Of a stretch of 64,000 nt of DNA, positions 3 through 36,064 are shown piece after piece. The stretch covers positions 27,829-91,828 of the forward strand of contig JAGWGX010000001.1 of assembly GCA_028867145.1 (NCBI GenBank), in the 5' to 3' direction. This DNA is from Candidatus Micrarchaeota archaeon. Its GTDB lineage: Archaea; Micrarchaeota; Micrarchaeia; Micrarchaeales; CABMGC01. Every line of letters begins with the position of its first letter. The stretch's first letter is position 1. The position numbers and the translations under genes are program-made. The notes below the pieces were generated by a model. It ran no database searches. It was not told the origin of the DNA and saw only the letters and a program-made list of their open reading frames with translations.

Positions 3-1592
3 AACATACAAAACCCGCTTGCCACAGTCCAGCAGTGGCTACCGATACTTGCGATTGCGATTTTCCTCTCGATCTCCTTTGCTGCGATACTTTACATGCT
101 TGGGAAAATCCTAAACGACCCGCAGATAAGCGCAAGGGGGCTCTCCGAGCTCGGGCAGGGAATCGGCACTGCGATATTTGCAGTCCTCGCGGTAGGCGTC
201 CTGCTCTTCTTTGGCACATTCATCTCTGGGTCAACCCTCTTCACTGGCGGATTTTCAACAGATATATCAAACATCTGCGCGGGCTTCTCCTCCCCTCAGG
301 TGCAGCTTGCGCTTGTTCAGCAGAATCCGACCACGCTAATGTGCACGATAGTTAAAGGCACAAACGGGGGGGGCGTGGACGCGACACCGTATCTAAACTA
401 CGGGCTTGCCTCAAGCTACGTAATAATTGCAAACCTCACCAACCAGGCCGCAAACAACATAAACAGCCTGTATGTCTACGAGGGATTCGTGGGATTTTTG
501 AGCACGCTTGTTTCAGACCCGGGCTTTTGCGAGCCTGCCCCTTCATGCACCATTCCGGTGGTGCAAAGGCTCTTTTCGGTTGACGTCTCCTCAAAGCCGC
601 TCGCTGGCTACTCGCTTATTAGCTCAATGACAAGGCCAGTAGAGTCGCAGGCGGTCTTCATCTTCTACATGCTGCTCACGCAGATGGTGGTATTCATAAT
701 ACTCATAAATATCTGGCCATACCTTCTTGCTGCGGGAATTCTTCTAAGAGCCCTTCCCTTCACAAGGAGCGCAGGGGGGCTGCTGATGGGACTCACTCTT
801 GTCATAGTGATAATACTTCCGCTTGTCACAATGATCGAGTATGGGGCTCTTGCGCACGGGGTCACCACGAGTCAGCTTGCGGGCAACGCGGCGCAGATAC
901 AGGACCATATGCTCTTTGGCCTAAAGAGTACGGGCTCAACATTTAACATTGCATGGGGAGATGGGACAAGCGATACGAAGACGCTAAGCCATACTTACCA
1001 GACGGCGGGCACTTACTCAGTTGTAGCAACTGTGACTGACTCAAATGGAGGACAGACAACAGCTTCGCAGCAAATTGTCTTGCCCCCTGTGCAACAGTAC
1101 CAGCCGCCCGCAAGCCCAAAGCCAGCTCTTTACATGAGCAACCCTGCAATAAGCGGACTGAGCGTCTCAGTCTGCCCAACGGGAACGGCGGGAATCTGCA
1201 CCCCATATGACTCACTCCTTCCAAACTTTTATGTCTTCCCAAGCCTCCAGCAGATAATAAACTACAATGACTGCTGGCCCCAGGACGGAAACCTTGGGCT
1301 TGAAGAGGCTAGCGACTCGCTTATCATGGCGACGCAGCTGGGAGTTGGAACGGGCCTTGAGTTTGGGGGATTCGTGCAGCAAATTCCCGACCTAAAGGGT
1401 GCAGGGATAAAGTGCTCGCCTCCAGAGGCGATTGCAAGCACGCTGCAGCTAATGGACGTGTACGGAATGATGTCGGTCGTTGGATTCATAATTCCGCTCT
1501 TCAACATACTGATAATAATCTCTGCAATAAAGAACATGTCGTATCTCTTCGGAGGGGACACAGACATCGCCGGGCTTGGCAAGTTGGTTTAG
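3..1592 (+). CDS. Polytopic membrane protein, paralog 1 of 4 (5'-partial at window edge) with a PKD-like domain in a loop
   Basis: The reading frame is open from the window edge, with no in-frame stop before the ATG at 96. Upstream residues QQWLPILAIAIFLSISFAAIL form a TM helix that aligns with QQWLPVAFAVILLSFMIAAIV of the 3905..5062 paralog. PKD-like signature WGDGTSDTKTLSHTYQTAGTYSVVATVTDSNGG. Family motif GILLRALPFTRSAGG. Confidence 0.75.
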   Translation, partial: NIQNPLATVQQWLPILAIAIFLSISFAAILYMLGKILNDPQISARGLSELGQGIGTAIFAVLAVGVLLFFGTFISGSTLFTGGFSTDISNICAGFSSPQVQLALVQQNPTTLMCTIVKGTNGGGVDATPYLNYGLASSYVIIANLTNQAANNINSLYVYEGFVGFLSTLVSDPGFCEPAPSCTIPVVQRLFSVDVSSKPLAGYSLISSMTRPVESQAVFIFYMLLTQMVVFIILINIWPYLLAAGILLRALPFTRSAGGLLMGLTLVIVIILPLVTMIEYGALAHGVTTSQLAGNAAQIQDHMLFGLKSTGSTFNIAWGDGTSDTKTLSHTYQTAGTYSVVATVTDSNGGQTTASQQIVLPPVQQYQPPASPKPALYMSNPAISGLSVSVCPTGTAGICTPYDSLLPNFYVFPSLQQIINYNDCWPQDGNLGLEEASDSLIMATQLGVGTGLEFGGFVQQIPDLKGAGIKCSPPEAIASTLQLMDVYGMMSVVGFIIPLFNILIIISAIKNMSYLFGGDTDIAGLGKLV

Positions 1593-1593
1593 A

Positions 1594-2832
1594 ATGAAGG
1601 CAATGGTATTCGTGGTTGCGTTTGCGCTCCTTCTCCTAGCCGGAAGCTTGCATGCGCAGGTTGTGCTGCCGGCGCAGGGAATCTGCTCGGATCTTTTTGG
1701 GCAGGTTGGAGCAAACGGCCAGGTCACGCCCGGCAGCATACAAAGCGCGCTCCCAAAGCTCACAGACTTCACAGGATATAATTTTATGCTGCTCTTCTCG
1801 CTAGAGATAGTGCTTGCGGTTCTGATGGTGCTTGCTATAATGTACGCGATAGCCACCGCGTTTGGAATACAAAGGGTGATAACTTTTGTGAGGACGGAGT
1901 ACCTTGAGAGCGTGCTGAACATAGTGATAATCGTCCTGCTGTTCGGTGGAATCGGGGTGCTTGCGGGCGGAATCGGATTCATCTCGAACCTTGGCGCCTC
2001 CGTGGTGAGCTCCTCGGGAGTGCAGCAGGTTGGCAGTTACACTCTTTCTCTGGCAAGCTCTTCTAGCATAGGCACAATCACGCAGGTCTACAACTCGATT
2101 TGCAACACGTACTTCAACGATGCGGTCTTGCACTTTGCGGGGCTTGGGGCGCTGAGCAATGAAAATCTGATTTACAGCATAGCCTCCGGGCTTGAGATAC
2201 AGGCGATGCCAAACGGGATGGGGATAAAGTTCTCACCCTTCTTTGGAATAACCCCTTTTGTGCAGGTGCTCAGCTTTATGACGCCGCTAATCACCGGCGC
2301 GATTATCGTGGAGCTCGGAATAATCTTCCTCCTGGGCCTCATCTACTATCTCTTCCCGATCTTCCTCTACTTGGGGATCTTGCTTCGCTGCCTTCCGTGG
2401 ACAAGAGCCGCGGGAGGAACGCTCCTTGCGCTCTTCATAGGATTTTATGTCTTCTTCCCTGCGCTGCTATACCCGTTTGCCTCGATAGACTATAGGTGCC
2501 TTGCGGGGCAGTCAAGCAGCTGCACGCTCCAGCCCCAGCAGACGATCAACCTTCCTCCCGTTCCCTCAACTGCCCAGTGCCCATCGCTTGCCCAGAGCAT
2601 AGCATGCGCCTTCTCCGTCGCGCTAAATGTTCCCGCGCTGCGCACCTTCTTCTTTGAGGGTCAGTTCATAGCGCTTCTTGACTTTTGGATCTTCTCGATA
2701 ATAAACGCCTCGTTCCAGATCTTCGGGGTGGTGATCTCGTTTGTGGTCTCGTACAGCCTGCTTGAGGGCTTTGCGGACCTGCTTGGCGCCCCATCGCTTA
2801 CGGCAAAGAATCTCTTGAGGAATGTTATATGA
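1594..2832 (+). CDS. Polytopic membrane protein, paralog 2 of 4 (signal peptide MKAMVFVVAFALLLLAGSLHA)
   Basis: The ORF track starts at TTG 1576. ATG 1594 lies 1 nt after the upstream stop and gives a clean signal peptide. Multiple TM helices. Family motif GILLRCLPWTRAAGG. Confidence 0.7.
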   Translation: MKAMVFVVAFALLLLAGSLHAQVVLPAQGICSDLFGQVGANGQVTPGSIQSALPKLTDFTGYNFMLLFSLEIVLAVLMVLAIMYAIATAFGIQRVITFVRTEYLESVLNIVIIVLLFGGIGVLAGGIGFISNLGASVVSSSGVQQVGSYTLSLASSSSIGTITQVYNSICNTYFNDAVLHFAGLGALSNENLIYSIASGLEIQAMPNGMGIKFSPFFGITPFVQVLSFMTPLITGAIIVELGIIFLLGLIYYLFPIFLYLGILLRCLPWTRAAGGTLLALFIGFYVFFPALLYPFASIDYRCLAGQSSSCTLQPQQTINLPPVPSTAQCPSLAQSIACAFSVALNVPALRTFFFEGQFIALLDFWIFSIINASFQIFGVVISFVVSYSLLEGFADLLGAPSLTAKNLLRNVI

Positions 2833-3905
2833 ACTTTGAGCCGCTCTTATTTGTGAACAGCTGCCTGAGTAGCATAAACGGATTCCTAAGCGCCCCAATC
2901 ACAGGATGGTTCCCGGTCGCAGTGCTTGGTACCCTTGCGACTGCCTTCATAATAGCGCTATTCTACGTAATTGAGCCGTTTGTGAGCAAGCGATCAGACT
3001 CGAGGGCATGGACTCGGGCAAAGCTCTACGAGACATTCTTCGCCTTCCTGCTGGTTCTAATCTTCGGCGGAATAGCAAGCATGTTGTGCACGGTGAATCC
3101 GGTGCCCACATACTCTAGTGTCGGACTTGTGCCAAACGCATGCAATCCAAGTCTCGCGGGAGGAGACCAGAGCATAAACAACATCTTTGCTCTCGCGGAG
3201 TGTAACCTCTACAACTTCAACAAGAATATAGTAGACTTCCTAAACTACATGATTGCTCTCATAACCTTCCTTGTCTCAAGCGCGCCAGGTGTGGGGCTCG
3301 CAGAGAACTTCCTCCCAGGGGTTAGCAACTTTGGTTTCTCGCTGAGCTTCGCAATTGATGCATCGGCGATAAAGCTCTTCTTTGAAAGCGCGGCGATTGC
3401 GCTAGGCGGGCTCATACTCATCTCGCAGGTGCAGCTTGTGCTGCTTGACGCCTCAATGGTGCTCTTTGCAATACTCCTGCCGCTTGGTCTGATCGCAAGG
3501 ATATTCGGGGTCACAAGGACATTTGGCGGCGCAATGATAGCCTTTGCAATGGGGCTCGGGGTTGTATTCCCGCTGATGATTAGCATAACATATGGATTCC
3601 TTGGTAGCGCCATTGATAGCTTCAACCCGCTTAGCTCGGTGAGCGGGGCGCTTGTGGGAGGGATAGAGGCGCTAGGAAGCAATCCAGGCCAGATCCTGCA
3701 GGGGACCTCACTTGCGTTCTTCAGCCTTGGCAAGGATCCCTTCCAGGTTTTCTATACCATGTTTGAGTACATAGGGATAGGGCTTGTTGGCACGCTCATA
3801 CTTCCAATTATAACATTTACGATAGTAAATACATTCATACTTGACTTTTCGCAGGCGGTGGGAGAGAGGATGGACTTCTTCTCGCTGCTCACTAGGGTGG
3901 TTTGA
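2829..3905 (+). CDS. Polytopic membrane protein, paralog 3 of 4
   Basis: ATGA start/stop overlap with the upstream gene. About 7 hydrophobic segments. Family motif GLIARIFGVTRTFGG. Confidence 0.7.
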   Translation: MNFEPLLFVNSCLSSINGFLSAPITGWFPVAVLGTLATAFIIALFYVIEPFVSKRSDSRAWTRAKLYETFFAFLLVLIFGGIASMLCTVNPVPTYSSVGLVPNACNPSLAGGDQSINNIFALAECNLYNFNKNIVDFLNYMIALITFLVSSAPGVGLAENFLPGVSNFGFSLSFAIDASAIKLFFESAAIALGGLILISQVQLVLLDASMVLFAILLPLGLIARIFGVTRTFGGAMIAFAMGLGVVFPLMISITYGFLGSAIDSFNPLSSVSGALVGGIEALGSNPGQILQGTSLAFFSLGKDPFQVFYTMFEYIGIGLVGTLILPIITFTIVNTFILDFSQAVGERMDFFSLLTRVV

Positions 3906-5062
3906 TGAGAGACAAAATTTTTATTTTTGTGATTCTGCTTTTGTCCCTAATTATAGGCAGTCCTTCCGCGCAGGGCACAGTGCAGTCCGTTGGCGCTTGC
4001 GCTACAAACCAGTTTGGGGTTGCGGAGATTGCGCCATGGTACTGCACAAGCATAAATCAGGTAATATATGGGGAGTGGCAGCAGTGGCTTCCTGTCGCAT
4101 TTGCTGTGATACTCCTCTCGTTTATGATAGCCGCGATTGTCTTTGTATGCGGTGTGGCGCTTAGGAACCAAAAACTCAGGGAGTTTGGAGTTGGGGAGAT
4201 ATATGAGGCAACTGCCTCCGCAATTATCGCAGGCCTTTTCATGACCATAGCTGCGGTTATGCTTGGAATTGTTCCGGCCAGCTTCACAGGACCTTCGGAC
4301 CCTTATGTAACCTCGTTAAACTACATCTCAACTACAATCACGCAGACAAACGGCCTAATCACTCATCTCTTTGCTACATTTTCTGTTGCAGCCTACTTCA
4401 CAAGCTTTAGCCTAAACGTGGGAGGCACTGTTGCGGCAGGCACCGATACAAGCTCGGCCACAACAATCTCAAAAGACGCAATAGGAGCGGTAAAGCAGTT
4501 TTCCGGGTTTTTCAAGAAGACAAACTCGCTCTTTTCCCCCGCGATTGACGCGCTCTTCATGGCGCCCGCGCAGATTCTCTCTGTCCTTTTGATGGGAGGG
4601 CTGCTGACATTGCATATAGAGTACTATCTGCTCCTTTTCGGGATGTATGCCGCGATACCTGTTTTCTTGCTACCGGGAATTGTCCTAAGATCCTTTATTC
4701 CCACAAGGAGCCTTGGAGGGATGTTCATGGGAATTGCGATAGCCTTCTTCTTTTTGATGCCCCTGATGTTCTCGGTCGCATACTATTTCACCCAGCAGGG
4801 CGTGGGCGGATCGCTTACAACCGCAACCGAGCAGATAACGCAGTTTGGGCAGGGAGTAGGCGCAGAGCAAAATGCTCTCACCCCGAGCAGCCCGCTTGTC
4901 ACAACCCTTAACAATTTGCAGAGCTCAATGGGCGCATACTGGCTTGCGATACTCTTCTACCCTGCAATGATAATGGCGCTCACCTACTTTGCAATCATTA
5001 CCATTGCGGATTTCATAGGCGGATTTGCGAAGGGATCTGGAAAGTTCATGTCGACGCTCTAG
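3905..5062 (+). CDS. Polytopic membrane protein, paralog 4 of 4 (signal peptide MRDKIFIFVILLLSLIIGSPSAQG)
   Basis: TGATG overlap with the upstream stop (the track start TTG 3902 is 1 codon earlier). Family motif GIVLRSFIPTRSLGG. The N-terminal TM pair aligns with paralog 1. Confidence 0.7.
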   Translation: MRDKIFIFVILLLSLIIGSPSAQGTVQSVGACATNQFGVAEIAPWYCTSINQVIYGEWQQWLPVAFAVILLSFMIAAIVFVCGVALRNQKLREFGVGEIYEATASAIIAGLFMTIAAVMLGIVPASFTGPSDPYVTSLNYISTTITQTNGLITHLFATFSVAAYFTSFSLNVGGTVAAGTDTSSATTISKDAIGAVKQFSGFFKKTNSLFSPAIDALFMAPAQILSVLLMGGLLTLHIEYYLLLFGMYAAIPVFLLPGIVLRSFIPTRSLGGMFMGIAIAFFFLMPLMFSVAYYFTQQGVGGSLTTATEQITQFGQGVGAEQNALTPSSPLVTTLNNLQSSMGAYWLAILFYPAMIMALTYFAIITIADFIGGFAKGSGKFMSTL

Positions 5063-5089: not shown

Positions 5090-5099
5090 TTTATTTATA
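5090..5099 (+). promoter_or_regulatory. TATA-box-like element upstream of 5132 gene
   Basis: TTTATTTATA lies in the only sizeable gap (69 nt) inside the cluster, about 35 nt upstream of the predicted start. Confidence 0.25.
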
Positions 5100-5131: not shown

Positions 5132-5962
5132 TTGGTTAATCTAAGGAGCTTGCTTTTCATATCTTTTGTTGGAATCTCGCTAGTCCTAATGATAGTCACC
5201 GTGAACCTGCAGATCCCAGACTATGCGAAGATAATCTTCCTTGCGATAGCCCTCTTTGTCGACATCCTTGCCGCATCCACAAGGTACTACTCGTATCTTT
5301 TCATACCGCTCACAAAGATCAAGAACGGGACGATAGTGCTCGACACTGAGGAGCCATTTTACCTCTCCCCTTCAGGCAACGCGCTGATTGTGAGGGAGGG
5401 AAACGAGGTCTACGCGACCGCGTTCATCAAGATACCCGTCTACAAATCTGCGACAGAGATGAACGATGAGGAAAAGGTTGATTTTGCAAGGCTCTTTAGC
5501 AGAATAGTGAGCCTTAGCAGGACGCCCTTCAAGATAAGCACCCAGATGTACCTTATCAACAAGGACGATTACATCGCGAAGATTCGCGACAGGCTAAACC
5601 TAATTGAGGAGCAGTATCAAAAGGCACTCGTTGACAAGAGCACAACAACAGGCGCGATGGAGAGGCTCAAGGGGGAGGTGACGATGTGGCACAACCTGCT
5701 TGAGAGCATAGGAAGGATACAGTCACACGCACTGCTGAACTACGCCACTGTGACAGCACTTGGAACGACCGAGGAAGAGGCAACGGCGCTTGTAAACCAG
5801 CAGGCAGATGAGATTGCAGCGGGAATCGGCGCGATACTTGGGGTCACTGCGCCGCTAATGACCGGCGAGGAGATTCTGCTTGTGACGCAGCCTGATTTCA
5901 CCATACCTTTCTCAACAGTGAGCGAGAGCATCAGGCAGAAGACGGTTTCAGAGGGGTTGTGA
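5132..5962 (+). CDS. Bitopic membrane protein (2 N-terminal TM helices + about 200-aa soluble domain), paralog A
   Basis: TTG start in the track, so the start is uncertain. Hydrophobic N-terminus LLFISFVGISLVLMIVTV / IIFLAIALFVDILAAS. The soluble domain shares blocks (YAT, PFK, VY) with the next gene. Confidence 0.6.
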   Translation: MVNLRSLLFISFVGISLVLMIVTVNLQIPDYAKIIFLAIALFVDILAASTRYYSYLFIPLTKIKNGTIVLDTEEPFYLSPSGNALIVREGNEVYATAFIKIPVYKSATEMNDEEKVDFARLFSRIVSLSRTPFKISTQMYLINKDDYIAKIRDRLNLIEEQYQKALVDKSTTTGAMERLKGEVTMWHNLLESIGRIQSHALLNYATVTALGTTEEEATALVNQQADEIAAGIGAILGVTAPLMTGEEILLVTQPDFTIPFSTVSESIRQKTVSEGL

Positions 5963-5966
5963 AAAG

Positions 5967-6794
5967 ATGGATGAGGAGACAATAATTTACCTTGGATTCA
6001 CAGGCATGGTCGCACTCCTTGGAATCTTCTTTTCGGGAGGCTACGGGACGCTCTCTATAGTTGCAATTGCGCTTTGCGTCGCCACAATAGTTTTCATAAT
6101 CGTTATGAACTACGCAGATTTCATACTCTTCCCTGTTTTCACAATTATTTTGGGAATAAAGACGGAGGCCGCAAAGAACTACATGATCCCAAAGAACCAG
6201 AACTGCATAATAAAAAACGTGAACGGGCTCTACTACGCAACAGGCTATCTGACCGCCAACGTCTACAACTTTGTATTTGCGGCGGAGCGCGTTGAGGAGG
6301 GGGAGGATGCAAAGCTTGCCGCGGGGCCGGACAAGTGGGAGAGGATCGTGATGAACGTGAAATTCCCGTTCAAGTTCCATGTGATAAGCTACGCGAACGA
6401 GATCCAAAGCTACAGGGAGGAGCTTGAGGGCAAAAGAGGATTCCTCGAGTTCCAGCTCTCAAAGGAGATGCAGGCATCAAGCCCAAACCAGCTCACAATA
6501 GATGATTTCCAGAGAAGGATAAACATAATCCAGTCCAGAATCGAGCGTCTCTCATCTGGGGAGAGGCCGGTCGGCAGCGTGATGTACATCGAGAGCATTG
6601 CGGTGGGAGTTAGCGAGAAGGCGGCGATGGACGCGCTCACGACCCAAATCGACCAGCTCCAGACCGTCTTCAACTCAATGGACCTGAGCATAAATAGGGT
6701 GGTGGGAAGGGAGCTAAACATCCTCTTCAAGTTCGGGTTCAAGCTGCCTACCACCGCATCTGAGCTGGAGGGGCTATTCAATGTGCAGAAGTGA
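5967..6794 (+). CDS. Bitopic membrane protein (2 N-terminal TM helices + soluble domain), paralog B
   Basis: ATG lies 4 nt after the upstream stop. Same length (275 vs 276 aa) and architecture as the 5132 gene. Shared blocks include NCIIKNVNGLYYATGYLTANVY vs NALIVREGNEVYATAFIKIPVY. Confidence 0.65.
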   Translation: MDEETIIYLGFTGMVALLGIFFSGGYGTLSIVAIALCVATIVFIIVMNYADFILFPVFTIILGIKTEAAKNYMIPKNQNCIIKNVNGLYYATGYLTANVYNFVFAAERVEEGEDAKLAAGPDKWERIVMNVKFPFKFHVISYANEIQSYREELEGKRGFLEFQLSKEMQASSPNQLTIDDFQRRINIIQSRIERLSSGERPVGSVMYIESIAVGVSEKAAMDALTTQIDQLQTVFNSMDLSINRVVGRELNILFKFGFKLPTTASELEGLFNVQK

Positions 6795-6826: not shown

Positions 6827-8335
6827 ATGACTTTGGTAAGGACGCAAAATCTGATGAGCAACGAGCTCGCCAAGAGAGTCTTCCTCAGCCGTCCCCCGGA
6901 GCCGCCTCACGAGTATTTGCTCAACGACCCAACAAACTCAATCTTCATAGGGATAACGAAGATCTTCGGGGCGCCGTTTAGCTGGACTTTTGCAAACCTC
7001 ACAAACCCGCACCTTGCGGTTGTCGGAATAACAGGAGCTGGTAAGTCCTTCTTCGTCAAGACCTTCCTTATCAGGGCAAGCTATGTCTGGAACACGAACG
7101 CGATAATAATTGACTGGGCTGGTGAGTACAGGGCCTGGGTGAAGCAGAGCGGGGGAACGGTCATCTCACTTGCAAAGGGAGACTACCTAAACATCATGGA
7201 CCTCTCCGGGATGAAGCCTCTGGACAGGGCAAAGCAAATCGTCAACTCGCTTGAGATACTAACTGACATCTCCCAGTACCCTGAGCAGAAAAGGCTGACA
7301 ACAGAGGCGCTTGAGCAGGCATATGTCAACCTGGGATTCAATCTTGCTTCGGTTCCAGATCCAAAGAAGGAGGCGCCAACGCTAAAGAACGTTATCTCGC
7401 TTCTTGAGGAGAAGCTTCAGGATGGGACATATGAGTATCCTGCGGAGCTTGAGAATGCGATCTATAGATTAAGGCAGTTTGCGCGTGAGGGAGAGGACTA
7501 CTTTGCAAGAAAGAGCACGCTTGACCTTGGAAAGCTTGTCTCATCGGGTCTAGTAGACCTTGACATCTCGGGACTTCCTGACGAGAGCTTCAGGGCGCTT
7601 GCGGCGCTCTTCATACTCCAGTCGCTAAAGGAGAAGATGCGAATGGAGGGATGGAGCTCATCAAAGGGGCTTCGCGCAATCGTTGTGCTAGACGAGGCAT
7701 GGAAGGTAGCAAGCGATGAGAGGAGCGATGCGGTTATGATTGTAAGAGAGGGAAGAAAGTACCAGTTTGGGCTGATTGTCGCATCCCAAAACCCGACCGA
7801 CATCAACGAGGCGATCTTCTCAAACGTCGGGACAACTGTGATACTTAGGATAAAGTTCGAGAAGTTCATGAACTACCTTCAGGGCTCGCTAAACTACTCC
7901 AACTTCATAAGAAAGGAGATCTCAAGGTTCGGAGTCGGTCAGGCTGCAATAGACATGTCCTTCCAGACCTCGGTACAGTTCCCGGAGATCTTCGTCATAG
8001 ACAAGGTCGTAGGGGAGATTCCGCTGGATGTTTACACACTATCAGTTGGCGACATAATGAACCAGGACGAGCTTGAGAATCCGGAGATGCAAAAGGAGTA
8101 CTACTTCGAGAAGATTGACCTGCGCAACAAGCTAATCGAGAGCAACATCGGAATTGAGGTGATAGAGAGCATCTTCAAGAGGCTAGATGACAAAAACAGG
8201 CAGCTCGACATCCGAGGCTTCATACAGGTGCTAAACGAGTTCAAGGTGGAGAAGCAGAACGTTATAATACTCCTAAGGAGCATAGGCCTTCAGGACATGG
8301 TGATAACAAGGGCGTTCACCTACATAGCGACGTGA
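6827..8335 (+). CDS. FtsK-HerA superfamily P-loop ATPase, VirB4/TrbE/CedB/HerA-like
   Basis: Walker A VVGITGAGKSFF. Walker B IVVLDEAWKV. Downstream REGRKYQFGLIVASQNPTDI block typical of VirB4/HerA-type ATPases. The 502-aa protein has no TM segments. Confidence 0.75.
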   Translation: MTLVRTQNLMSNELAKRVFLSRPPEPPHEYLLNDPTNSIFIGITKIFGAPFSWTFANLTNPHLAVVGITGAGKSFFVKTFLIRASYVWNTNAIIIDWAGEYRAWVKQSGGTVISLAKGDYLNIMDLSGMKPLDRAKQIVNSLEILTDISQYPEQKRLTTEALEQAYVNLGFNLASVPDPKKEAPTLKNVISLLEEKLQDGTYEYPAELENAIYRLRQFAREGEDYFARKSTLDLGKLVSSGLVDLDISGLPDESFRALAALFILQSLKEKMRMEGWSSSKGLRAIVVLDEAWKVASDERSDAVMIVREGRKYQFGLIVASQNPTDINEAIFSNVGTTVILRIKFEKFMNYLQGSLNYSNFIRKEISRFGVGQAAIDMSFQTSVQFPEIFVIDKVVGEIPLDVYTLSVGDIMNQDELENPEMQKEYYFEKIDLRNKLIESNIGIEVIESIFKRLDDKNRQLDIRGFIQVLNEFKVEKQNVIILLRSIGLQDMVITRAFTYIAT

Positions 8336-8339
8336 TAGT

Positions 8340-8636
8340 ATGGGAGCGACATTTGTGGTAAATAGGCTGGAGCTCAAGAGGATGCTAACAATGCTCAAGG
8401 TCAGCGACAAGACGATCGATGAGCTTGAGGCAAACCTCAACAGGCTCCACAGGCACGTGAACGCGGTCTCGTTCGCGGGAATGCTCCAGAAGGTGGGACT
8501 AAAGCAAAACGACATCACAAACGTCTTCAGGAGAATGGGGATAGACGACATAAACATAACAGAGATATTCAACGCTCTTGACGAGGAGAAGATAAACGAG
8601 ACCTTCGGCAAGATTGTGGTACTGACTGTGGAGTGA
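8340..8636 (+). CDS. Small helical protein homologous to the C-terminal tail of the adjacent ATPase
   Basis: Ungapped match FAGMLQKVGLKQNDITNVFRRMGIDDINITEIF vs ATPase FIQVLNEFKVEKQNVIILLRSIGLQDMVITRAF. Starts 4 nt after the ATPase stop. Confidence 0.6.
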   Translation: MGATFVVNRLELKRMLTMLKVSDKTIDELEANLNRLHRHVNAVSFAGMLQKVGLKQNDITNVFRRMGIDDINITEIFNALDEEKINETFGKIVVLTVE

Positions 8637-8640
8637 TTTT

Positions 8641-9102
8641 TTGGCAAGGAGCATCTGTGTTTGTTGCGGGAACGAGGCGGCGGGGCTGCCTGTTGAGGAG
8701 GACAGCGTAATCAGAGGGCTGCGATTTGTGAAGGCAAAGCTTCACATGAAGGTTAATAATAGCAAGCTGGTCTGGTGCAGGCAGTGCTATCCAAAACACG
8801 TGCACGCAACCGTGTCTGCAAGCAAGAATCAAAACAAGACAGGTGTTCCTGTAGTGGTCCTCCAAGATCCGGGTAGGCACCCGACAAGCTGGGTTGAGAG
8901 GGTTGGATATGAGGAATCAAGAAGGAATTATGAGTCTCGCCAGATGACCTACATCGCAATAGGCGTGATATTTGGGATACTCGGGGTGCTGATCTCCTTT
9001 GGAATAGGGAGCATTATTGCAGCAATTGTGGTCATCATCTTCCTCTACCTGATGTCCCTGCTAACCTACACCCCAAAAATCGCGGTAAAAACAGCAAAGT
9101 AA
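8641..9102 (+). CDS. Zn-ribbon protein with C-terminal two-helix membrane hairpin
   Basis: TTG start. CVCCG...WCRQC cysteine pairs at the N-terminus. C-terminal hydrophobic stretch YIAIGVIFGILGVLISFGIGSIIAAIVVIIFLYLMSLL. Confidence 0.5.
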   Translation: MARSICVCCGNEAAGLPVEEDSVIRGLRFVKAKLHMKVNNSKLVWCRQCYPKHVHATVSASKNQNKTGVPVVVLQDPGRHPTSWVERVGYEESRRNYESRQMTYIAIGVIFGILGVLISFGIGSIIAAIVVIIFLYLMSLLTYTPKIAVKTAK

Positions 9103-9176
9103 TCTCGGTTTTTGCCCAAAAAGGGGAACATAAACTAATAAATATACTTAATAGATAGTAATAGAAGAGTGATTGG

Positions 9177-9899
9177 TTGCCTGAAGAGGAAATTGTGCCA
9201 AAAGTGGAGGAGATAACTTTTTCTGGAAAACTTACGGGCACCCTTGAGCAGACAAGGCAGAAGCTTGCTGCGATCCCCTTCTTTTCAACCAAGATAAACG
9301 GCGAGGAGCTAAACCTAGCGAAGGTCGAGAGCAGGAACATAAAGAAAAAGCCGTTCCTTTTCTACCTGATAACGATAAGGGCGGACTCTGTGAAGGTGGT
9401 CTACTCAATTGCGCCGGACACGAGCGAGAAGCTAAGGAGGCTCTACGTGATAAAGAACCTTGCCTCGGTCCTCTCGATAATATACGATTCCTACCAGATA
9501 GACACGGTCAAGTTCCTGCAGTATGTTGACTCCTCTATCGACGAGATGCTAAACTCACTATCGCAAAGCTACAGCACGCTATTTAACAAGTACGACTCGC
9601 TCCTATCTGAATACAGGGAGATGAGAAGGCTCAACCTCGAGCTCTCTGCCTCAAACCGCAACCTCACGATACAGACAACGCAGTTTGACGAGGACAACAA
9701 GCAGCTAAACGCCCAGCTCAAGGCGCTGCAGACCTACTCGGACGATGCGCTGATGGCGATGGTCCAAGACTGGATAGAGACGCACAACAACTCGATAGAC
9801 ATAACCGAATTCGCCGGCAACTACAAGATTGCGGCGCCCAGGATCGAGCAGATACTAGACAAGATGGTCTCGCTCGGGTACGTGGAGCTCAAGAGTTGA
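9177..9899 (+). CDS. Coiled-coil protein with C-terminal winged-helix-like domain
   Basis: TTG start (uncertain). Heptad-rich segment LSEYREMRRLNLELSASNRNLTIQTTQFDEDNKQLNAQLKALQ. C-terminal ITEFAGNYKIAAPRIEQILDKMVSLGYVELK resembles a wHTH. Confidence 0.5.
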   Translation: MPEEEIVPKVEEITFSGKLTGTLEQTRQKLAAIPFFSTKINGEELNLAKVESRNIKKKPFLFYLITIRADSVKVVYSIAPDTSEKLRRLYVIKNLASVLSIIYDSYQIDTVKFLQYVDSSIDEMLNSLSQSYSTLFNKYDSLLSEYREMRRLNLELSASNRNLTIQTTQFDEDNKQLNAQLKALQTYSDDALMAMVQDWIETHNNSIDITEFAGNYKIAAPRIEQILDKMVSLGYVELKS

Positions 9900-10057
9900 T
9901 GGCCGTGAAGTACTCCGCCACCGTAAACAAGAAGTTCAGGTACGTAAAGGTGTACAGGGTGGTTAAGAAGGTTAACCAAAGCACGAACGCGGTCTCGCAG
10001 TTCATGGAAAAGTTCGTTGACAAGTACATCTTGAAGAGAAACAAGGTTGAGGAATAG
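9899..10057 (+). CDS. Small basic protein (52 aa), translationally coupled (TGATG) to upstream gene; not in ORF track
   Basis: My translation is MAVKYSATVNKKFRYVKVYRVVKKVNQSTNAVSQFMEKFVDKYILKRNKVEE*. The ATG overlaps the upstream TGA. The only track ORF here is an antisense 69-aa ORF that looks spurious. Confidence 0.45.
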   Translation: MAVKYSATVNKKFRYVKVYRVVKKVNQSTNAVSQFMEKFVDKYILKRNKVEE

Positions 10058-10069
10058 GCGAGAAACCCC

Positions 10070-12448
10070 ATGGAGCAGAAATCAAAAAAACGAGGCATTG
10101 CGATAATAGCGGTGCCGATTGCAATAGTGATCTTGCTCCTTGCAGGGATTGTAATCTACACCCAGAGCACACTTGGCTCCATACAGGCGCACTCGGTCGC
10201 AAATAGCCTGGGGCAGATACGCTTCAACTTTTCAGTGGTGAGCAACGGCATTGCAACATATGGCAATGCGCAGCTAATCACCCCATATGTGGTCACAAAA
10301 TACACCTCAAGCAACGCAACCTTTCTTTCTCTTTACTTCAATTTATATTCCAGAAACCCGCTCCCCAACATCTACTACCTAAACACGACAAACTACTGCT
10401 ACCAGTGCTACAGCGACAGCGCACTCTTCGCAAATGTTAGCGCATACCTTGCAAGGTACGGGCTTGTAACTGCAACAAGCACGCTTAGCTACATAAATCC
10501 AAGCCAGCTCTCCAAGATTCCACGAAGTTCAATAATAATAGTTCCATCTGGAATACTTCCGGTCTATATGCTTCCAAATTCAGCATTTCCAATCAACGGT
10601 AGCGCCAGCATCTTGACGCTTCTAAACCAGAGCGACACTATACTTTATATCGGGACAAACTTCTCAAGGAGCTCCGCTCCGGGGGGGGTCATATTCTCAA
10701 ACTCTAATGCGACAGTCTCAAAGCTAAACAATGCGGGGCTCGTCACGCTTCCATTCGCAAACAAGAACGCAAGCAAGACCTTCTCCTACTTTAGCGCGCC
10801 AACATTCTCATTTGGCGTGGGCGGCTACTTTGGATACGCATCCTACGTCAATACCTACAACGGATCTATAGTGTCATTCACGAATACCCAGAGATCTGGA
10901 TGGCAGAACACAAGCGCGATAGGCTATGACATTGCAAAGACGCTAAGCACCCATTTTTGGCTGCATCCGCTTGCGAGCGGAGTTTACTCACAGGGATCTC
11001 CTGGCAGCGGCACTATCGGAATTCCCGCGCTCAACAGCACAATGATTAACAACAAGACGACAATCGCAAAAGTGGTCAACTCCTCATACGGAGTTGTGAC
11101 CGCCCTGATTTACAACTCGAGCAGCCTGATTGAGAGGGCGCTTCCTGTCAAGGTCGCCTACATCTCAAATGGGAGCCTCTCCATACAGCCATACCTTGGG
11201 CAGACGCAGAGCATCCCGATAGGGGTTAGCATAAACCTAAACTCCACAAGGCCGCAGCTTGTGATACCGCACATTGATTTATACAACAAGAACCTCACCT
11301 ACATAACAAGCATCTCGGTGCCCTTCTTCAACACGACCTCCAACATAAACATAATAAAGTACTACACCTTCCAGCTCCCCAGCGGCACATACCTTGCGGT
11401 ACTCAGGAACTTCTACAACAAGTACTACTCAAGCGCGTTCTTCAATGTTACAAACGTGACCCTGTCCCCGATCTCGCTCAACTTCAAGAACGGAAGCTTT
11501 GTGTTTTCGGTGAAGAGCAACAACATCCCAATCACAAACACCACCTACTCAATCGACGTGAACGGGGCATATAGGGTAAGCGGCAATGTGACAAACGGGT
11601 ACATACTCTACAACCTTCCAAGGGACACGGTGCTGGGGTACGGGACCGAGACGTTTAATTTGCAGATGTTTGGGAGCAAATACAGCTACAGTACCTCAAA
11701 TGTGCAGCAGGTGCTAAACATCCCGACAATATACATCGAGTTTGTGATTGTGGGGCTTGCGATAATAATACTAAACCTTATAGTGAAGCCGCCAAACAGG
11801 GATGAGTACTACATAGACGTGCCTGAGTTCCATGAGGCAAAGAAGTTCAACGTGAAGATAAACAAGGGCGAGATCCTAAGCGTGTTTGACAAGGTCAACT
11901 TCGCGTACCACTGGAAGTACATGCCGCTAACCCTGGAGGAGATAAAGAGCGGGATCAGCGGAAACATTAGGTACAACAACATCCCGGTCTCGATAACGAT
12001 GCAAAACGCGGCGATGATAATGAGCAAGCTTGCGCTTGAAAACGAGATCGTCTCATCCGGAGGGTACTATGCGCCAAAGAGGTGGACAAGCGATTCTGGA
12101 TACGACATCGAGTATCTCTCGATATTTAGGAGGATAAGGGACTACTCAGTCGGGCATGCAATCTTGTTCACGGACATCGGGGCAAGCGAGGCTGCGGACA
12201 TTACGCTGAGCAAGGGCGGCGGACAGACGCACATCATGATCTACTCAAGCCTCTCAGGGATAAAGAAGATAAATGTCTCGTCTGACCTCAAGACCTACAT
12301 AGTCTTTGCGGACGAGGAGAAGCTGCTTGGATTCACGGACAAGATCTACAGGTCGTATGGAAGCGAGGCCGAGATGCTAAAGATCGGGCTCTCCTACGGA
12401 TACATAAGGCTCGTCGAGGCAAACAACCTTGACCAGATAGTCTTCTAA
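10070..12448 (+). CDS. Large bitopic surface protein: N-terminal anchor/signal, about 530-aa sequon-rich ectodomain, TM helix, about 230-aa cytoplasmic domain
   Basis: N-terminal IAIIAVPIAIVILLLAGIVIY. Dozens of N-x-S/T sequons (NAT, NTT, NVS, NGS, NQS, NFS, NSS...). Second TM IEFVIVGLAIIILNLIV followed by a charged soluble C-terminal domain. Confidence 0.65.
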   Translation: MEQKSKKRGIAIIAVPIAIVILLLAGIVIYTQSTLGSIQAHSVANSLGQIRFNFSVVSNGIATYGNAQLITPYVVTKYTSSNATFLSLYFNLYSRNPLPNIYYLNTTNYCYQCYSDSALFANVSAYLARYGLVTATSTLSYINPSQLSKIPRSSIIIVPSGILPVYMLPNSAFPINGSASILTLLNQSDTILYIGTNFSRSSAPGGVIFSNSNATVSKLNNAGLVTLPFANKNASKTFSYFSAPTFSFGVGGYFGYASYVNTYNGSIVSFTNTQRSGWQNTSAIGYDIAKTLSTHFWLHPLASGVYSQGSPGSGTIGIPALNSTMINNKTTIAKVVNSSYGVVTALIYNSSSLIERALPVKVAYISNGSLSIQPYLGQTQSIPIGVSINLNSTRPQLVIPHIDLYNKNLTYITSISVPFFNTTSNINIIKYYTFQLPSGTYLAVLRNFYNKYYSSAFFNVTNVTLSPISLNFKNGSFVFSVKSNNIPITNTTYSIDVNGAYRVSGNVTNGYILYNLPRDTVLGYGTETFNLQMFGSKYSYSTSNVQQVLNIPTIYIEFVIVGLAIIILNLIVKPPNRDEYYIDVPEFHEAKKFNVKINKGEILSVFDKVNFAYHWKYMPLTLEEIKSGISGNIRYNNIPVSITMQNAAMIMSKLALENEIVSSGGYYAPKRWTSDSGYDIEYLSIFRRIRDYSVGHAILFTDIGASEAADITLSKGGGQTHIMIYSSLSGIKKINVSSDLKTYIVFADEEKLLGFTDKIYRSYGSEAEMLKIGLSYGYIRLVEANNLDQIVF

Positions 12449-23214: not shown

Positions 23215-23306
23215 AGCTCCATCGTCTAGTGGTCGCTACGCAAGTAGCCACAAAAGGATATCGCCCTCTGGAGGCGGTGACGCCAGTTCGAATCTGGCTG
23301 GAGCTA
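23215..23306 (+). tRNA. tRNA-Gln(CUG) with about 20-nt insert (putative non-canonical intron) in the D-loop
   Basis: Hand fold. Acceptor AGCTCCA/TGGAGCT + A73. D-stem GTCT/GGAT. Anticodon stem TCGCC/GGCGG with loop CTCTGGA. T-arm GCCAG-TTCGAAT-CTGGC. The D-loop is 28 nt and contains the hairpin GCTAC-GCAA-GTAGC (23235..23248). Confidence 0.75.
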
Positions 23307-33391: not shown

Positions 33392-36064
33392 CTATCCAGA
33401 CCTTGGTATTCCGACCGTCTGCCACTCATTGGCCCCAGTTGTGATTGAAGAGAGGCCCGGAGCGTTGTAAGCGCCACTAAAGTATGGGAAGTTCACGTTA
33501 ACTATTGTGCCATTACCGCCATTTCCACTGTAGTCAATAGGATTGCCATTTAGCGGCCACCAGCCCGCAAGTGCATTGGATGAAACTGGCAGGCCCTGAA
33601 TCCCGCTTCGATAGAGCTGCTTAACTTGGTTGGAAGAGAGTGGGCCACCATAAACTTGCAGGTTTGATATCTGTCCAATAAAGTCATAGTTAGGACAACC
33701 TGTTGCAAGCTCACCTATTGATCCTACACCATTTGGGTGATTTTGTAGGGTTCCACTATATGCGGCCTGCGTCATTAGAGTTCCGTTTATGTAGATGTAC
33801 CTAGTTGACCCATCCCAGACCGCTACGATATTGTACCAAGTATTTAGTCCGTTCACGGGATAGCTCAAGTCAGAGATTCCTCCATTATTAAGCCTAAATT
33901 TGACGTAGGAACTCTCTAAGAAGAGCATGTATTGCGCATTGCAGCCGGTTTGTTGATAGATATTTCCGTTGTTCAAACCTGTTGCTGAGGTTGGGTAAAT
34001 CCATGCAGAAATGCTGAGTGGACCAACTATGTTCAGCGCGTTATTCGGATTAGCAACGTTTATGTAGCTATTTTGCAGCAAGCCGTTAAAGTTTGCGACC
34101 TGAAGGGAACTCTGTTGAAGTCCCAGAGGCAGGTATCCCAGATATGCGTGAGGCAGGAGGCTGTTAGAGCACTGCGAATTGCTGTTGCAGTTGAGAAGAC
34201 CGGGGATTGGGGACAGGGCGGTTGGCGTGGTAACGGACAGGATTGAATCTCTTACGTAATTTGTCGGAAGAGTATAGATAACGTTTGTTGGAATGCCGTT
34301 GTTGCCCTGGCCGCTATAGTCATTTGTATTTCCATTGAGCGGCCACCAGCCAACTATTCCAGAGTTGCTTGGAGGTAGGCCATTAAGTCCCTCTTGGTAG
34401 AGTTGATAGATTTGCTGCGCGCCAAGCGTCTTGTTGTAAACTTGAGCATTTGCTATACCGCCAGGGAAGAATCTATCTATCATCAGTTCACCGCCGATTT
34501 CAAGACCTGCGCTTCCACTTAGAGCAATATTTCCGGTTACAGCGATCGTGTTGGATTGCACGCCGTTAAGGTACATCACCACATTTGCGCCATTGTAAGT
34601 AACGCCCACCTGCGTCCACTGATTTAGACTAATTGGAGTTGATGAAAGATAGTAGCCAGCAGGTGCGACGCCGTAGAAGTAGGCCCCGAGGTATGGAACT
34701 CCGCCAATGGTCCTACCCACCAGGTAGTATTCATTTGCATCCTCAACTATGGAACCTTGGGTATTTGCGTTGTTTAGATTCACCCAAGCCAAGATAGTTA
34801 TCTGACTCTTCCCATTGAAATCAGGATTATTGGAGGGAATGGTAACATAACTTATTGGGCTTATTGAGTTAAAGGCGCCCACCTGCGGAGTGGATGTTGA
34901 AAAAGAGAACAGGCCATTCGGATTTTGCTTAAGAACTGACTGTTGGGCTCTGTCAAGATAGGAAGGCGTGAGGGGCGATGCAAAGTAGTAGCCGCCCGAT
35001 GCTGCAGTTATCAGATTCTGGATGCTGTAGACGCTTAGCGTGTTTCCGGATATCAGAACCTGTTGCCCATTTTTTATGTTGCCAAGCACACCTGTTGCAG
35101 AAGGATACGCGAGCCAGGGGATTGATGGAGAAAGCGTTACGCTGTTTATGCTGTAGGTTATAAGTCCCCCATACTGATTTGCACACTGGGCGCCAGAAGC
35201 ACCGCCTGTTATCCCGATTGCATTTGATGTAGCAAGTATCAGCATCTGGTTGTACGGAGCGAAGGAGAAAGCGGGAACGTTTGCGGCCACCATTGTGGAG
35301 AGGCTTCCGCAGGTCAACCCTCCTGCGCCAGTTGGCACTTGATATACCGGGCCATAGGCACTTGCAAGGTAGTTTCCGTTTGTGGCATTTACGTTTCCAA
35401 TCAGCGTTGTAAGGTTGCTAGTCTGGCTGAACCTTATGTTTCTCGGGACTCCCTGCTGATAGTAGAAAAGATCAGGCGTGTTGTTTAGGGAGAGCGTCGC
35501 ATTTACAGGTATCTGGTACCTGAACTTTCCTGCTGAGGAATTTAGTAGAATGTTTTGGACATAGTTCACGCTAAGTGTGTAGGGGCTGCTCTGGGAAATT
35601 ACGGGCTTGCTCTGATTCACGGAAAGCACAATAGCACCTAAATTGAGAGTACTTGAGAGCGAGAGGTTGTATGCGGAGATTGTGAGATTTGCCATCTGGC
35701 TCTTGAGGTAGTTTGCTGGTATTGAATTTGACGCGACATTTGGAAGGGTGCCATTTACCATCAGGTATGTTAGGTACAGGCTTGTGTTTGAGATGAAGTT
35801 GCTCTTCCTCATAGAGGCATTTAACTCGTAGTTTGCGAGCGTCTTCATTGCCTGTGAAAGGCTCGCTGATGCAAATAGCCCAGCGCTTGTCCCGAGCGCT
35901 TTGCCGTAGTTTATGGATCCGGAGCCGAGCGCAAGTGAGGTATCAAGATTGTTGTAGTTTACATTGAGCAGTGCAAATGTGATGAGCTCGCCGAGTATCA
36001 GTAGGAAGAGGACGAGTATTAGTATCGTCATGAACAGGCCTTTCTTGTTGGAGTTTAGCGCCAT
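33392..36064 (-). CDS. Giant pilin-like protein (890 aa) with N-terminal hydrophobic class III-like signal and at least 2 LamG-type modules
   Basis: N-terminal NSNKKGLFMTILILVLFLLILGELITFALL. Two copies of the junction ...Q[VI]Y...QLY..G[LI].G.P...........WWPLNGN..DYSG.G.NG, which is typical of Laminin_G_3 (concanavalin-like) domains. Confidence 0.7.
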   Translation of the reverse strand: MALNSNKKGLFMTILILVLFLLILGELITFALLNVNYNNLDTSLALGSGSINYGKALGTSAGLFASASLSQAMKTLANYELNASMRKSNFISNTSLYLTYLMVNGTLPNVASNSIPANYLKSQMANLTISAYNLSLSSTLNLGAIVLSVNQSKPVISQSSPYTLSVNYVQNILLNSSAGKFRYQIPVNATLSLNNTPDLFYYQQGVPRNIRFSQTSNLTTLIGNVNATNGNYLASAYGPVYQVPTGAGGLTCGSLSTMVAANVPAFSFAPYNQMLILATSNAIGITGGASGAQCANQYGGLITYSINSVTLSPSIPWLAYPSATGVLGNIKNGQQVLISGNTLSVYSIQNLITAASGGYYFASPLTPSYLDRAQQSVLKQNPNGLFSFSTSTPQVGAFNSISPISYVTIPSNNPDFNGKSQITILAWVNLNNANTQGSIVEDANEYYLVGRTIGGVPYLGAYFYGVAPAGYYLSSTPISLNQWTQVGVTYNGANVVMYLNGVQSNTIAVTGNIALSGSAGLEIGGELMIDRFFPGGIANAQVYNKTLGAQQIYQLYQEGLNGLPPSNSGIVGWWPLNGNTNDYSGQGNNGIPTNVIYTLPTNYVRDSILSVTTPTALSPIPGLLNCNSNSQCSNSLLPHAYLGYLPLGLQQSSLQVANFNGLLQNSYINVANPNNALNIVGPLSISAWIYPTSATGLNNGNIYQQTGCNAQYMLFLESSYVKFRLNNGGISDLSYPVNGLNTWYNIVAVWDGSTRYIYINGTLMTQAAYSGTLQNHPNGVGSIGELATGCPNYDFIGQISNLQVYGGPLSSNQVKQLYRSGIQGLPVSSNALAGWWPLNGNPIDYSGNGGNGTIVNVNFPYFSGAYNAPGLSSITTGANEWQTVGIPRSG

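Follow-up and report, generated by a model that had tools for sequence, protein, structure and literature searches.

The 5′ end of a 64-kb stretch of Candidatus Micrarchaeota DNA (the window, by which we mean the whole stretch analyzed) raises the question of what its four co-directional open reading frames (ORFs) for polytopic membrane proteins, here called p1 to p4 (Table 1), might build. A sequence-only reading of this DNA had described them as a tandem quadruplication of an unrecognized family and suggested a hetero-oligomeric channel of four subunits. Physical contact with a host archaeon is essential to Micrarchaeota, as it is to other DPANN archaea, and we know of no molecular machinery for this contact. 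We found that the family has six members in a fixed order across the phylum, and p1 to p4 are probably members 3 to 6 of the VirB6-like membrane core of a chromosomal apparatus, derived from a type IV secretion system (T4SS) and similar to the Ced and Ted systems, that occurs across Micrarchaeota.

Paralogy and the six-gene array

The four ORFs are true paralogs, far beyond chance. All four 30-residue blocks quoted in the sequence-only reading occur verbatim in the translations. When all six reading frames of the window were translated (127,996 residues), the shared motif (R.{4}TR..GG.{13}P) matched exactly four times, always in p1 to p4. Pairwise BLASTP among p1 to p4 gave E values of 2e-4 to 3e-9 over alignments of up to 338 residues, showing that homology extends beyond the motif, and the proposed match between the N-terminal transmembrane (TM) regions of p1 and p4 (QQWLP...) is real by sequence comparison. 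A family hidden Markov model (HMM) found no further copies elsewhere in the window. The p1/p2, p2/p3, and p3/p4 junctions measure +1, -4, and -1 nt; hence, the genes are translationally coupled, as the earlier description of a coupled operon had it. There is no start codon at nt 3, and the p1 ORF extends beyond the window start; its full-length orthologue in a relative (L001:6042-7712) has 556 aa and a signal peptide. For p2, an alternative TTG start at 1576 is likewise open. The earlier count of two paralogs with signal peptides is corrected accordingly: p3 lacks one, p1 has one in its full-length orthologue, and most family members carry a predicted cleavable signal peptide.

Paralogy was thus borne out, but the copy number of four was an effect of the window edge. 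On contigs of two relatives, L001 (83% identical) and L002 (62% identical), two more paralogs (pA and pB) lie directly upstream of p1, giving six in total. pA has a PKD insertion ahead of the motif, and pB, the second paralog, has a degenerate motif (R..FTGPRLREAAN) in which the GG is lost. The six residues reported as invariant (R5, T10, R11, G14, G15, and P29 of the block) do come out invariant in a MAFFT alignment of p1 to p4, but when all six paralogs are aligned, only R263, R269, and P287 are invariant, with C33, E99, G259, G272, and G273 nearly so. Among 47 p4 orthologues (36-83% identical to the p4 of the window), R263, P267, R269, G272, G273, and P287 are invariant, in line with the expectation that orthologues keep the motif.

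In a scan that took one genome for each GTDB species, 148 species-level genomes had p4 relatives, nearly all of these genomes being labeled Micrarchaeota and one belonging to the cultured strain A_DKE. We analyzed 83 loci (80 of the loci with p4 relatives, L001, L002, and the window), annotated with HMMs built for this analysis. Exactly six family ORFs were present in 61 of the 83 loci and a clean tandem array in fixed order in 60, the remainder being mostly interrupted by contig ends. The gene order on which the sequence-only reading had asked for a check is therefore conserved (60/83 loci), and the conserved number is six, not four. Each position has its own motif variant (pA FRAFPFLRGIGG, pB MRSLPFTREASN, p1 LRATFFTRRAGG, p2 LRSFPWTRAAGG, p3 ARIFGVTRTFGG, and p4 LRAILPTRSLGG). 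Given the fixed order of six genes and a distinct variant at each position, the sextuplication is ancient, and all six copies have been kept one-to-one. In one locus (L077), the gene at the p4 position encodes 1237 aa and thus has a large extension. Labels other than Micrarchaeota (Saccharimonadales bacterium, Methanothrix sp., "bacterium," and Aquilonibacter sp.) were found on a Micrarchaeota-type cluster in loci L034, L052, and L054 and for proteins P0075/P0227; these are probably mis-binned contigs in public metagenome-assembled genomes (MAGs).

The PKD domain of p1 lies above the Pfam threshold (PKD_4, 33.3 bits versus a cut-off of 27; E 5e-8), as the sequence-only reading had recognized, but it is not confined to p1, since upstream paralog pA has one too. 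PKD inserts occur in 2-3 of 60 genomes, and a WGDG-type insert was found in 3 of 60 p1 orthologues. Because PKD inserts are so rare across the phylum, they are lineage-specific, and the proposed adhesive PKD/Pro-rich extension is a decoration of some lineages rather than a family-wide feature.

The family is indeed unrecognized. Apart from the PKD insert of p1, Pfam and NCBIfam gave no family match for p1 to p4 even at permissive E values. Pfam gave none at E ≤10 for the family region of 20 members covering all six paralog groups, PDB sequences gave none at E ≤10 against a p4-orthologue profile, and PADLOC gave none for p4. In NCBIfam, p2 to p4 were without a match and pA and pB had only chance-level or PKD-region matches, the presence of a CedA model in that library not being verified. 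ABC-2 permeases and oligosaccharyl-transferase-like proteins, named earlier as known families to which these proteins might belong, showed no profile match in Pfam, NCBIfam, or PDB sequences. A hypothetical protein from a Candidatus Micrarchaeota (DPANN) MAG has the same sequence as p4 (100% identity), and 72 p4 matches are Micrarchaeota-type proteins without a Pfam domain. An exhaustive profile search returned 2,509 clusters (50% identity) at E ≤1e-3 and 1,444 at E ≤1e-10, defining a large protein family (about 2,500 clusters) without database annotation. The named members sampled bear Micrarchaeota labels and are called "hypothetical" or "PKD domain-containing"; one representative has a bacterial label, a probable case of mis-binning.

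Hydropathy, the positive-inside rule, and an AlphaFold2 (AF2) model of p4 (mean predicted local distance difference test score, pLDDT, 81.4; predicted template-modeling score, pTM, 0.70) all agree on the topology. The predicted N-terminal half consists of a signal peptide, an outside N-terminus with conserved Cys residues, TM1, a cytoplasmic basic/acidic loop (E99, E102), and TM2. This is followed by a 114-residue outside helical region, TM3, a 16-residue cytoplasmic loop, TM4 (P287), an outside loop, TM5, and a short, cytoplasmic, Lys-containing tail. Several helices of the model are 40-75 residues long and would project well past the bilayer. The 16-residue loop holds the core of the motif (R263...T268 R269..G272 G273). 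Because conservation across the family reaches its maximum in the TM3-loop-TM4 segment and its minimum in the outside loops, the motif plausibly forms a tight cytoplasmic hairpin. The idea of a functional site at the membrane interface is thus retained as to its location, but a docking or packing surface is more plausible than an intramembrane gate.

Cluster neighbors and comparison with secretion systems

The array belongs to a chromosomal cluster of ~17 genes, with the conserved order pilin, m639, m244, six paralogs, q5, q6, ATPase, s98, s153, s240, a small basic ORF, and big792. The order from the pilin through the six paralogs, q5/q6, and the ATPase is kept in about 60 genomes. The pilin has a signal peptide and two hydrophobic helices. 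Sub-threshold matches to Pfam T4SS_pilin and/or TrbC/VirB2, covering the whole profile, were obtained for 10 of the 11 genomes tested; an hhalign comparison of its profile with TrwL was weak (E 0.02). A Cys just before helix 1 is invariant in the pilins of L001 (129-599) and 27 other loci, and the pilin sequences listed have another Cys as, or close to, their last residue. A disulfide between these residues would tie the two ends together, much like the head-to-tail cyclization of VirB2/TrbC pilins. In some genomes, the pilin gene is present in 2-3 tandem copies. Near the pilin are m639, a polytopic protein at the pilin end of the cluster (DUF2079/GT-C-like in L002), and m244, a 5-TM protein encoded before the six paralogs. 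Tried as an alternative VirB6, m244 showed no similarity to VirB6 (probability 0.1%), the pilin, or the family by hhalign.

Downstream of the array, q5 and q6 are paralogs of one another (BLASTP E 3e-6 over 272 aa). When the q5 model was searched against the PDB with Foldseek, ranks 1-10, 12, and 13 were all TrwK/VirB4 of R388 (probability 0.77-1.00, E 5e-3 to 0.19). We propose that q5 may represent a VirB3-like hairpin fused to a module resembling the VirB4 N-domain; VirB3-VirB4 fusions are documented (PMC12102498). The ATPase exceeds the Pfam cut-offs for DUF87 (HerA central domain, 58 bits), AAA_10 (49 bits), and P-loop_TraG (38 bits), and its entire P-loop domain (residues 57-327) can be aligned with the VirB4 structure 4AG5 (E 1.7e-7). 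Against the NCBIfam models for CedD, HerA, VirB4, and CedB, it scored at about E 1e-16 in each case, far below the cut-offs (35-58 bits versus 325-1177 for VirB4/TraC/CedB). Because Walker A lies at about residue 67, the protein is without a VirB4-type N-domain, and the combination that marks VirB4, an N-domain and a P-loop ATPase in one chain above cut-offs, is not found in it. We infer that VirB4 is split here into three genes: two VirB3-like-hairpin/VirB4-N modules (q5 and q6) and a separate motor. Profile-profile comparison showed homology between s98, a small protein, and the ATPase C-terminus (hhalign probability 96.5%, E 7e-10); therefore, the C-terminal helical module of the motor also exists as a free-standing, conserved protein encoded directly after the ATPase. 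Among the rows listed from supplementary tables on A_DKE (PMC8975820), the only HerA match is a different HerA, Micr_00101.

Several observations suggest a likeness of the six paralogs to VirB6. The predicted p4 topology (five TM helices with the N-terminus outside and the C-terminus inside, TM2 and TM3 being separated by a large outside loop) equals that published for Agrobacterium tumefaciens VirB6, in which five TM segments lead from a periplasmic N-terminus to a cytoplasmic C-terminus and one periplasmic loop is large (PMC6120205). A Foldseek search of the PDB with the p4 model placed TrwI/VirB6 chains (7O3V, 8RT9, and 8RTD) at ranks 4, 7, 15, 16, and 23 (probability 0.11-0.75, E 0.4-1.1, none at E ≤1e-3), and TrwI had the highest target-normalized TM-scores (template-modeling scores, 0.36-0.42) among full-length alignments. 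In addition, hhalign aligned the helix-loop-helix of the cluster pilin profile in register with TM1-loop-TM2 of the family, weakly (E 4e-4, probability 34%), the pilin-family pair being the only outlier of 27 control profile pairs among cluster membrane proteins and VirB6. This pilin-like N-terminal hairpin mirrors the resemblance of CedA1 to CedA and of VirB2 to VirB6 reported by Beltran et al. (PMC9905601).

A number of results weigh against a VirB6 assignment and, more broadly, against a T4SS-derived apparatus. The Foldseek search of the PDB with p4 yielded nothing at E ≤1e-3 and TM-scores all <0.5, with TrwI ranking no better than designed helical repeats and TTYH channels beside it; a search of BFVD likewise gave nothing at E ≤1e-3, its viral matches being uninformative. 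By hhalign, family profiles compared with TrwI alone and with an MPF_T VirB6 profile (nine sequences, assembled here from PLSDB plasmids) reached a probability of 0.1%. The TrbL/VirB6 model (Pfam PF04610) was matched neither by p1 to p4 at E ≤1 nor by 20 members of the six groups at E ≤10, and the family profile found no match in PDB sequences. For the neighboring genes, the fold matches of q5 to VirB4, given without the matched part of VirB4, have E values of 5e-3 or weaker and low TM-scores, and hhalign of the q5 profile with the TrwK sequence was negative. In sequence, the ATPase resembles HerA at least as closely as VirB4, and all pilin scores fall just below the Pfam gathering thresholds (best, 27.2 bits versus a cut-off of 27.9). 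The pilus, any transfer through it, the stoichiometry, and the cargo are putative. Since the profile-profile comparison is flatly negative, we do not file the family under TrbL/VirB6: the paralogs may work like VirB6, and homology is possible, with membership unproven.

The comparison with VirB6/TrbL (TrwI of R388 and A. tumefaciens VirB6) shows both likeness and difference. Besides the topology, the paralogs share long helices projecting from the membrane and the company of a VirB2-like pilin and VirB3/VirB4-like genes. They differ in having no detectable sequence similarity to VirB6, in their own invariant R-x5-R/GG/P cytoplasmic hairpin, and in the cleavable signal peptide of most members. 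There are also six distinct paralogs, in a monoderm archaeal envelope, where VirB6 is one protein; TrwI forms a homopentamer.

Another comparison is with the Ced and Ted systems of Crenarchaeota, in which a pilin of the VirB2 type occurs together with a VirB6-like channel and a VirB4-like ATPase (PMC9905601). Like Ced (CedA/CedA1/CedB) and Ted (TedA/TedC/TedB), the Micrarchaeota cluster has the appearance of a chromosomal, domesticated T4SS remnant with a pilin, a polytopic protein, and a HerA/VirB4-like ATPase, and no relaxase. The CedB and CedD models give its ATPase similar scores, and the N-terminus of its polytopic proteins may resemble the pilin, as reported for CedA/CedA1. It differs in phylum (DPANN), in components that are not recognizable by sequence, in having six paralogs rather than one CedA/TedA, in the proposed split of VirB4 into two TM-anchored N-modules and a separate ATPase, and in the addition of a GT-C-like gene and four to five more conserved proteins.

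Two bacterial systems offer further parallels. In the obligate symbiont Rickettsia, the virB6 genes of virB3-virB4-virB6a-e are tandem paralogs that have diverged by ~80% (PMC2653234). The rvh system of Rickettsiales thus resembles the Micrarchaeota cluster in placing 4-5 tandem, diverged VirB6 paralogs beside virB3-virB4 in a reduced-genome obligate symbiont, with paralogs that are one-to-one across species and variable flanks. Its copies, in contrast, have a genuine TrbL/VirB6 domain along with large extensions (670-1150 aa) and belong to a diderm T4SS with VirB7-11/D4, and we regard the likeness as an analogy of evolutionary pattern, not as shown ancestry. Patescibacteria (the candidate phyla radiation) have a monoderm, MPF-FATA-derived, relaxase-less T4SS with VirB2-like pilins, VirB3, VirB4, and VirB6, and both virB6 and prgI, which encodes the VirB3 homologue, were reported essential for growth/epibiotic growth in one cultivated strain, Ca. 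S. epibionticum ML1 (PMC12102498). Here the likeness lies in a lineage-wide, relaxase-less T4SS, including VirB2-like pilins, in an ultrasmall episymbiont lineage. The patescibacterial system is bacterial, its components are found by standard T4SS profiles, and it has neither a six-fold VirB6 array nor a split VirB4.

Proposed apparatus and rival explanations

Taken together, the pilin, q5/q6, and the ATPase make the apparatus a probable domesticated T4SS derivative of the Ced/Ted kind. Since six non-redundant, translationally coupled paralogs are kept in fixed order across the phylum, a hetero-oligomer of distinct paralogs would most simply account for the array. The earlier proposal of a hetero-oligomeric channel is thus kept as to hetero-oligomerization, but with six subunits instead of four, and as the core of a T4SS/Ced-like cluster instead of a free-standing channel operon. 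One copy of each paralog would form a VirB6-like platform in the cytoplasmic membrane, possibly a pseudo-sixfold ring matched to a hexameric ATPase. The long paralog helices, as modeled by AF2, may project outward as a stalk and serve as a base for pilin assembly, the role that VirB6 is thought to have in R388. The cytoplasmic face would present the invariant R-x5-R(-GG) hairpin and the acidic loop 1 (E99/E102), and q5, q6, and the hexameric HerA/VirB4-type ATPase may dock there. By analogy with R388, the ATPase would then power both the removal of the VirB2-like pilin from the membrane and pilin polymerization on the platform. The resulting pilus or conduit could serve cell-cell contact and macromolecule transfer, for example, DNA import as in Ced/Ted or exchange with a host. 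Pfam and NCBIfam scans of the cluster proteins and neighbors found no relaxase or VirD4-type coupling protein domains, which argues against plasmid conjugation; DNA import or exchange (Ced/Ted-like) or host interaction (Patescibacteria-like) appears more likely by analogy. The variable extracellular loops and lineage-specific PKD inserts fit a surface-exposed role.

The same data can be read in other ways. The paralogs could form a self-contained hetero-oligomeric solute or ion channel, or a transporter, that functions independently of the downstream ATPase genes. They are polytopic helical proteins with a conserved charged loop, TTYH channels are among the weak fold matches, and a TATA-like box between p4 and q5 may place the two gene blocks on separate transcripts. 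We consider this very unlikely, however, as the array essentially never occurs apart from the pilin, q5/q6, and the ATPase, the cluster being syntenic in about 60 genomes, and even rearranged loci keep both halves adjacent. Moreover, no transporter family was matched, conservation is concentrated on the cytoplasmic hairpin rather than on intramembrane polar residues, and the helices extend far past the membrane thickness. That the cluster is instead a HerA-based antiviral defense system or a mobile integrative and conjugative element (ICE), and not a housekeeping apparatus, seems highly improbable. VirB2/VirB4-like genes are typical of conjugative elements, and in PADLOC, the ATPase matches HerA models (E 1.6e-21) and also Mad8 and DndH, but no nuclease, Sir2, or other effector partner accompanies it, and the other six cluster proteins tested had no PADLOC match. 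No integrase was seen in or beside the cluster in the window, L001, or L002, nor were a relaxase or VirD4 in or beside it. Defense islands and ICEs are patchy in distribution, and the opposite distribution of the cluster, in 148 species-level genomes with conserved order and, in the window, L001, and L002, with the same housekeeping neighbors (Topo VI-B and a KH protein), disfavors both.

A third alternative accepts a T4SS-like or HerA-driven machine but holds the paralogs to be a novel class unrelated to VirB6, for example, a membrane/S-layer scaffold or analogues of VirB5/VirB8/VirB10, with m244 as the VirB6/CedA counterpart or none at all. The negative profile-profile comparison with VirB6 and the sub-significant fold match to TrwI speak for this explanation, and in Ted, the VirB6-like gene is directly downstream of the pilin gene (PMC9905601), a position held here by m244. 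Yet m244 is without VirB6 similarity in hhalign, the VirB6 topology and pilin-like N-terminal hairpin are found in the six paralogs and not in m244, and TrwI is the best target-normalized structural match to p4 among full-length alignments; we therefore judge it unlikely.

Returning to the VirB6-like core of a Ced/Ted-like apparatus, a bolder version of it can be outlined. Cryo-electron tomography has shown pili-like fibers and "synapse-like" bridges between ARMAN/Micrarchaeota and Thermoplasmatales hosts, the molecular basis of which was not known (PMC4110969), and the cluster is, speculatively, a candidate basis for both. Were the ring to contain one of each paralog in pseudo-sixfold arrangement, with q5 and q6 alternating as membrane adaptors, it could underlie these fibers and host connections and allow the symbiont to take up DNA, lipids, or metabolites. 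It would then be a phylum-defining symbiosis organelle and a third independent repurposing of a T4SS by a reduced-genome symbiont, after Rickettsiales and Patescibacteria. We regard this full scenario as doubtful.

The literature searched on DPANN and Micrarchaeota (including cultured Micrarchaeota), T4SS, Ced/Ted, and ARMAN pili contained no description of the cluster or the family, most subscription journals being outside the coverage. Systems of the Ced/Ted type are known; new here are an unannotated six-paralog family, the putative platform, and a putatively split VirB4 in a probable T4SS-derived archaeal system. If the interpretation is correct, T4SS-derived systems in archaea extend beyond Crenarchaeota, with an unusual architecture of six obligate membrane-platform paralogs and a VirB4 split into three genes. 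With at least 148 species-level genomes carrying it, among them that of the cultivable Ca. Micrarchaeum A_DKE, the cluster provides a concrete experimental target.

Coordinates, transcription units, and surroundings

Coordinates of the cluster features are collected in Table 1.

Table 1. Features of the cluster within the window (positions in nt)
Feature	Position	Strand	Description	Support or identifier
p1	3..1592	+	Third of six in the full array; N-terminus missing at window edge	Family HMM E 1.8e-68
p1 conserved block	735..824	+	GILLRALPFTRSAGGLLMGLTLVIVIILPL
p1 PKD insertion	942..1079	+	Immunoglobulin-like; outside loop after TM4, then Pro-rich stretch	Pfam PKD_4
p2	1594..2832	+	412 aa from ATG at 1594; signal peptide	Locus tag KGH53_00140
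p2 conserved block	2374..2463	+
p3	2829..3905	+	358 aa; without signal peptide; ATGA overlap with p2 stop
p3 conserved block	3486..3575	+
p4	3905..5062	+	385 aa; predicted signal peptide, N-out, 5 TM helices, C-in
p4 conserved block	4676..4765	+	Spans predicted cytoplasmic TM3-TM4 hairpin (R263...T268 R269..G272 G273) and TM4 with P287
TATA-like box	5090..5099	+	TTTATTTATA; 33 nt upstream of q5 start
q5	5132..5962	+	N-terminal TM hairpin and alpha/beta domain	AF2 mean pLDDT 78.8
q6	5967..6794	+	Paralog of q5: N-terminal TM hairpin and alpha/beta domain	q-family HMM E 4e-61
ATPase	6827..8335	+	HerA/VirB4/TraG-type P-loop ATPase	Walker A GITGAGKS at about residue 67
s98	8340..8636	+	Small soluble protein, homologous to C-terminal ~80 aa of ATPase; conserved in cluster
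s153	8641..9102	+	CxxC...CxxC zinc-ribbon-like N-terminus and C-terminal TM region; conserved cluster member
TATA-like box	about 9135-9160		AATAAATATA; AT-rich, in intergenic gap
s240	9177..9899	+	Soluble; weak below-threshold matches to coiled-coil families; conserved cluster member
Small ORF	9899-10066		Very basic, ~52 aa, MAVKYSATVNKKFRYVKVYRVVKK...; between s240 and big792
big792	10070..12448	+	792 aa, bitopic/two-TM; last conserved cluster member

The small basic ORF is called as a gene in two relatives as well, with 49 aa in L001 and 59 aa in L002. big792, for which no family match was found, consists of an N-terminal TM segment, an outside domain of ~520 aa with 24 N-x-S/T sequons, a second TM segment, and a cytoplasmic domain of ~210 aa. 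At the opposite end of the cluster from big792, relatives have a GT-C-like (DUF2079) membrane protein. AT-rich TATA-like boxes occupy the only two sizeable intergenic gaps of the cluster, which would suggest three transcription units (...p4, q5-s153, and s240-big792), the box upstream of q5 being a possible internal promoter. In five loci (L020, L023, L024, L037, and L048), the ATPase half is inverted relative to the six-paralog half, with the two halves still adjacent.

The cluster in the window ends at nt 12448 and is followed by housekeeping genes (Topo VI-B, KH protein, eIF2-gamma, and Cdc48); Topo VI-B and the KH protein are neighbors in L001 and L002 as well. Elsewhere in the window, ARAGORN places a tRNA-Thr, without Rfam support, at 34679-34757 (-) inside an 890-aa ORF (33392-36064), and Rfam gives a weak tRNA (30 bits), missed by ARAGORN, at 23246-23306 (+).

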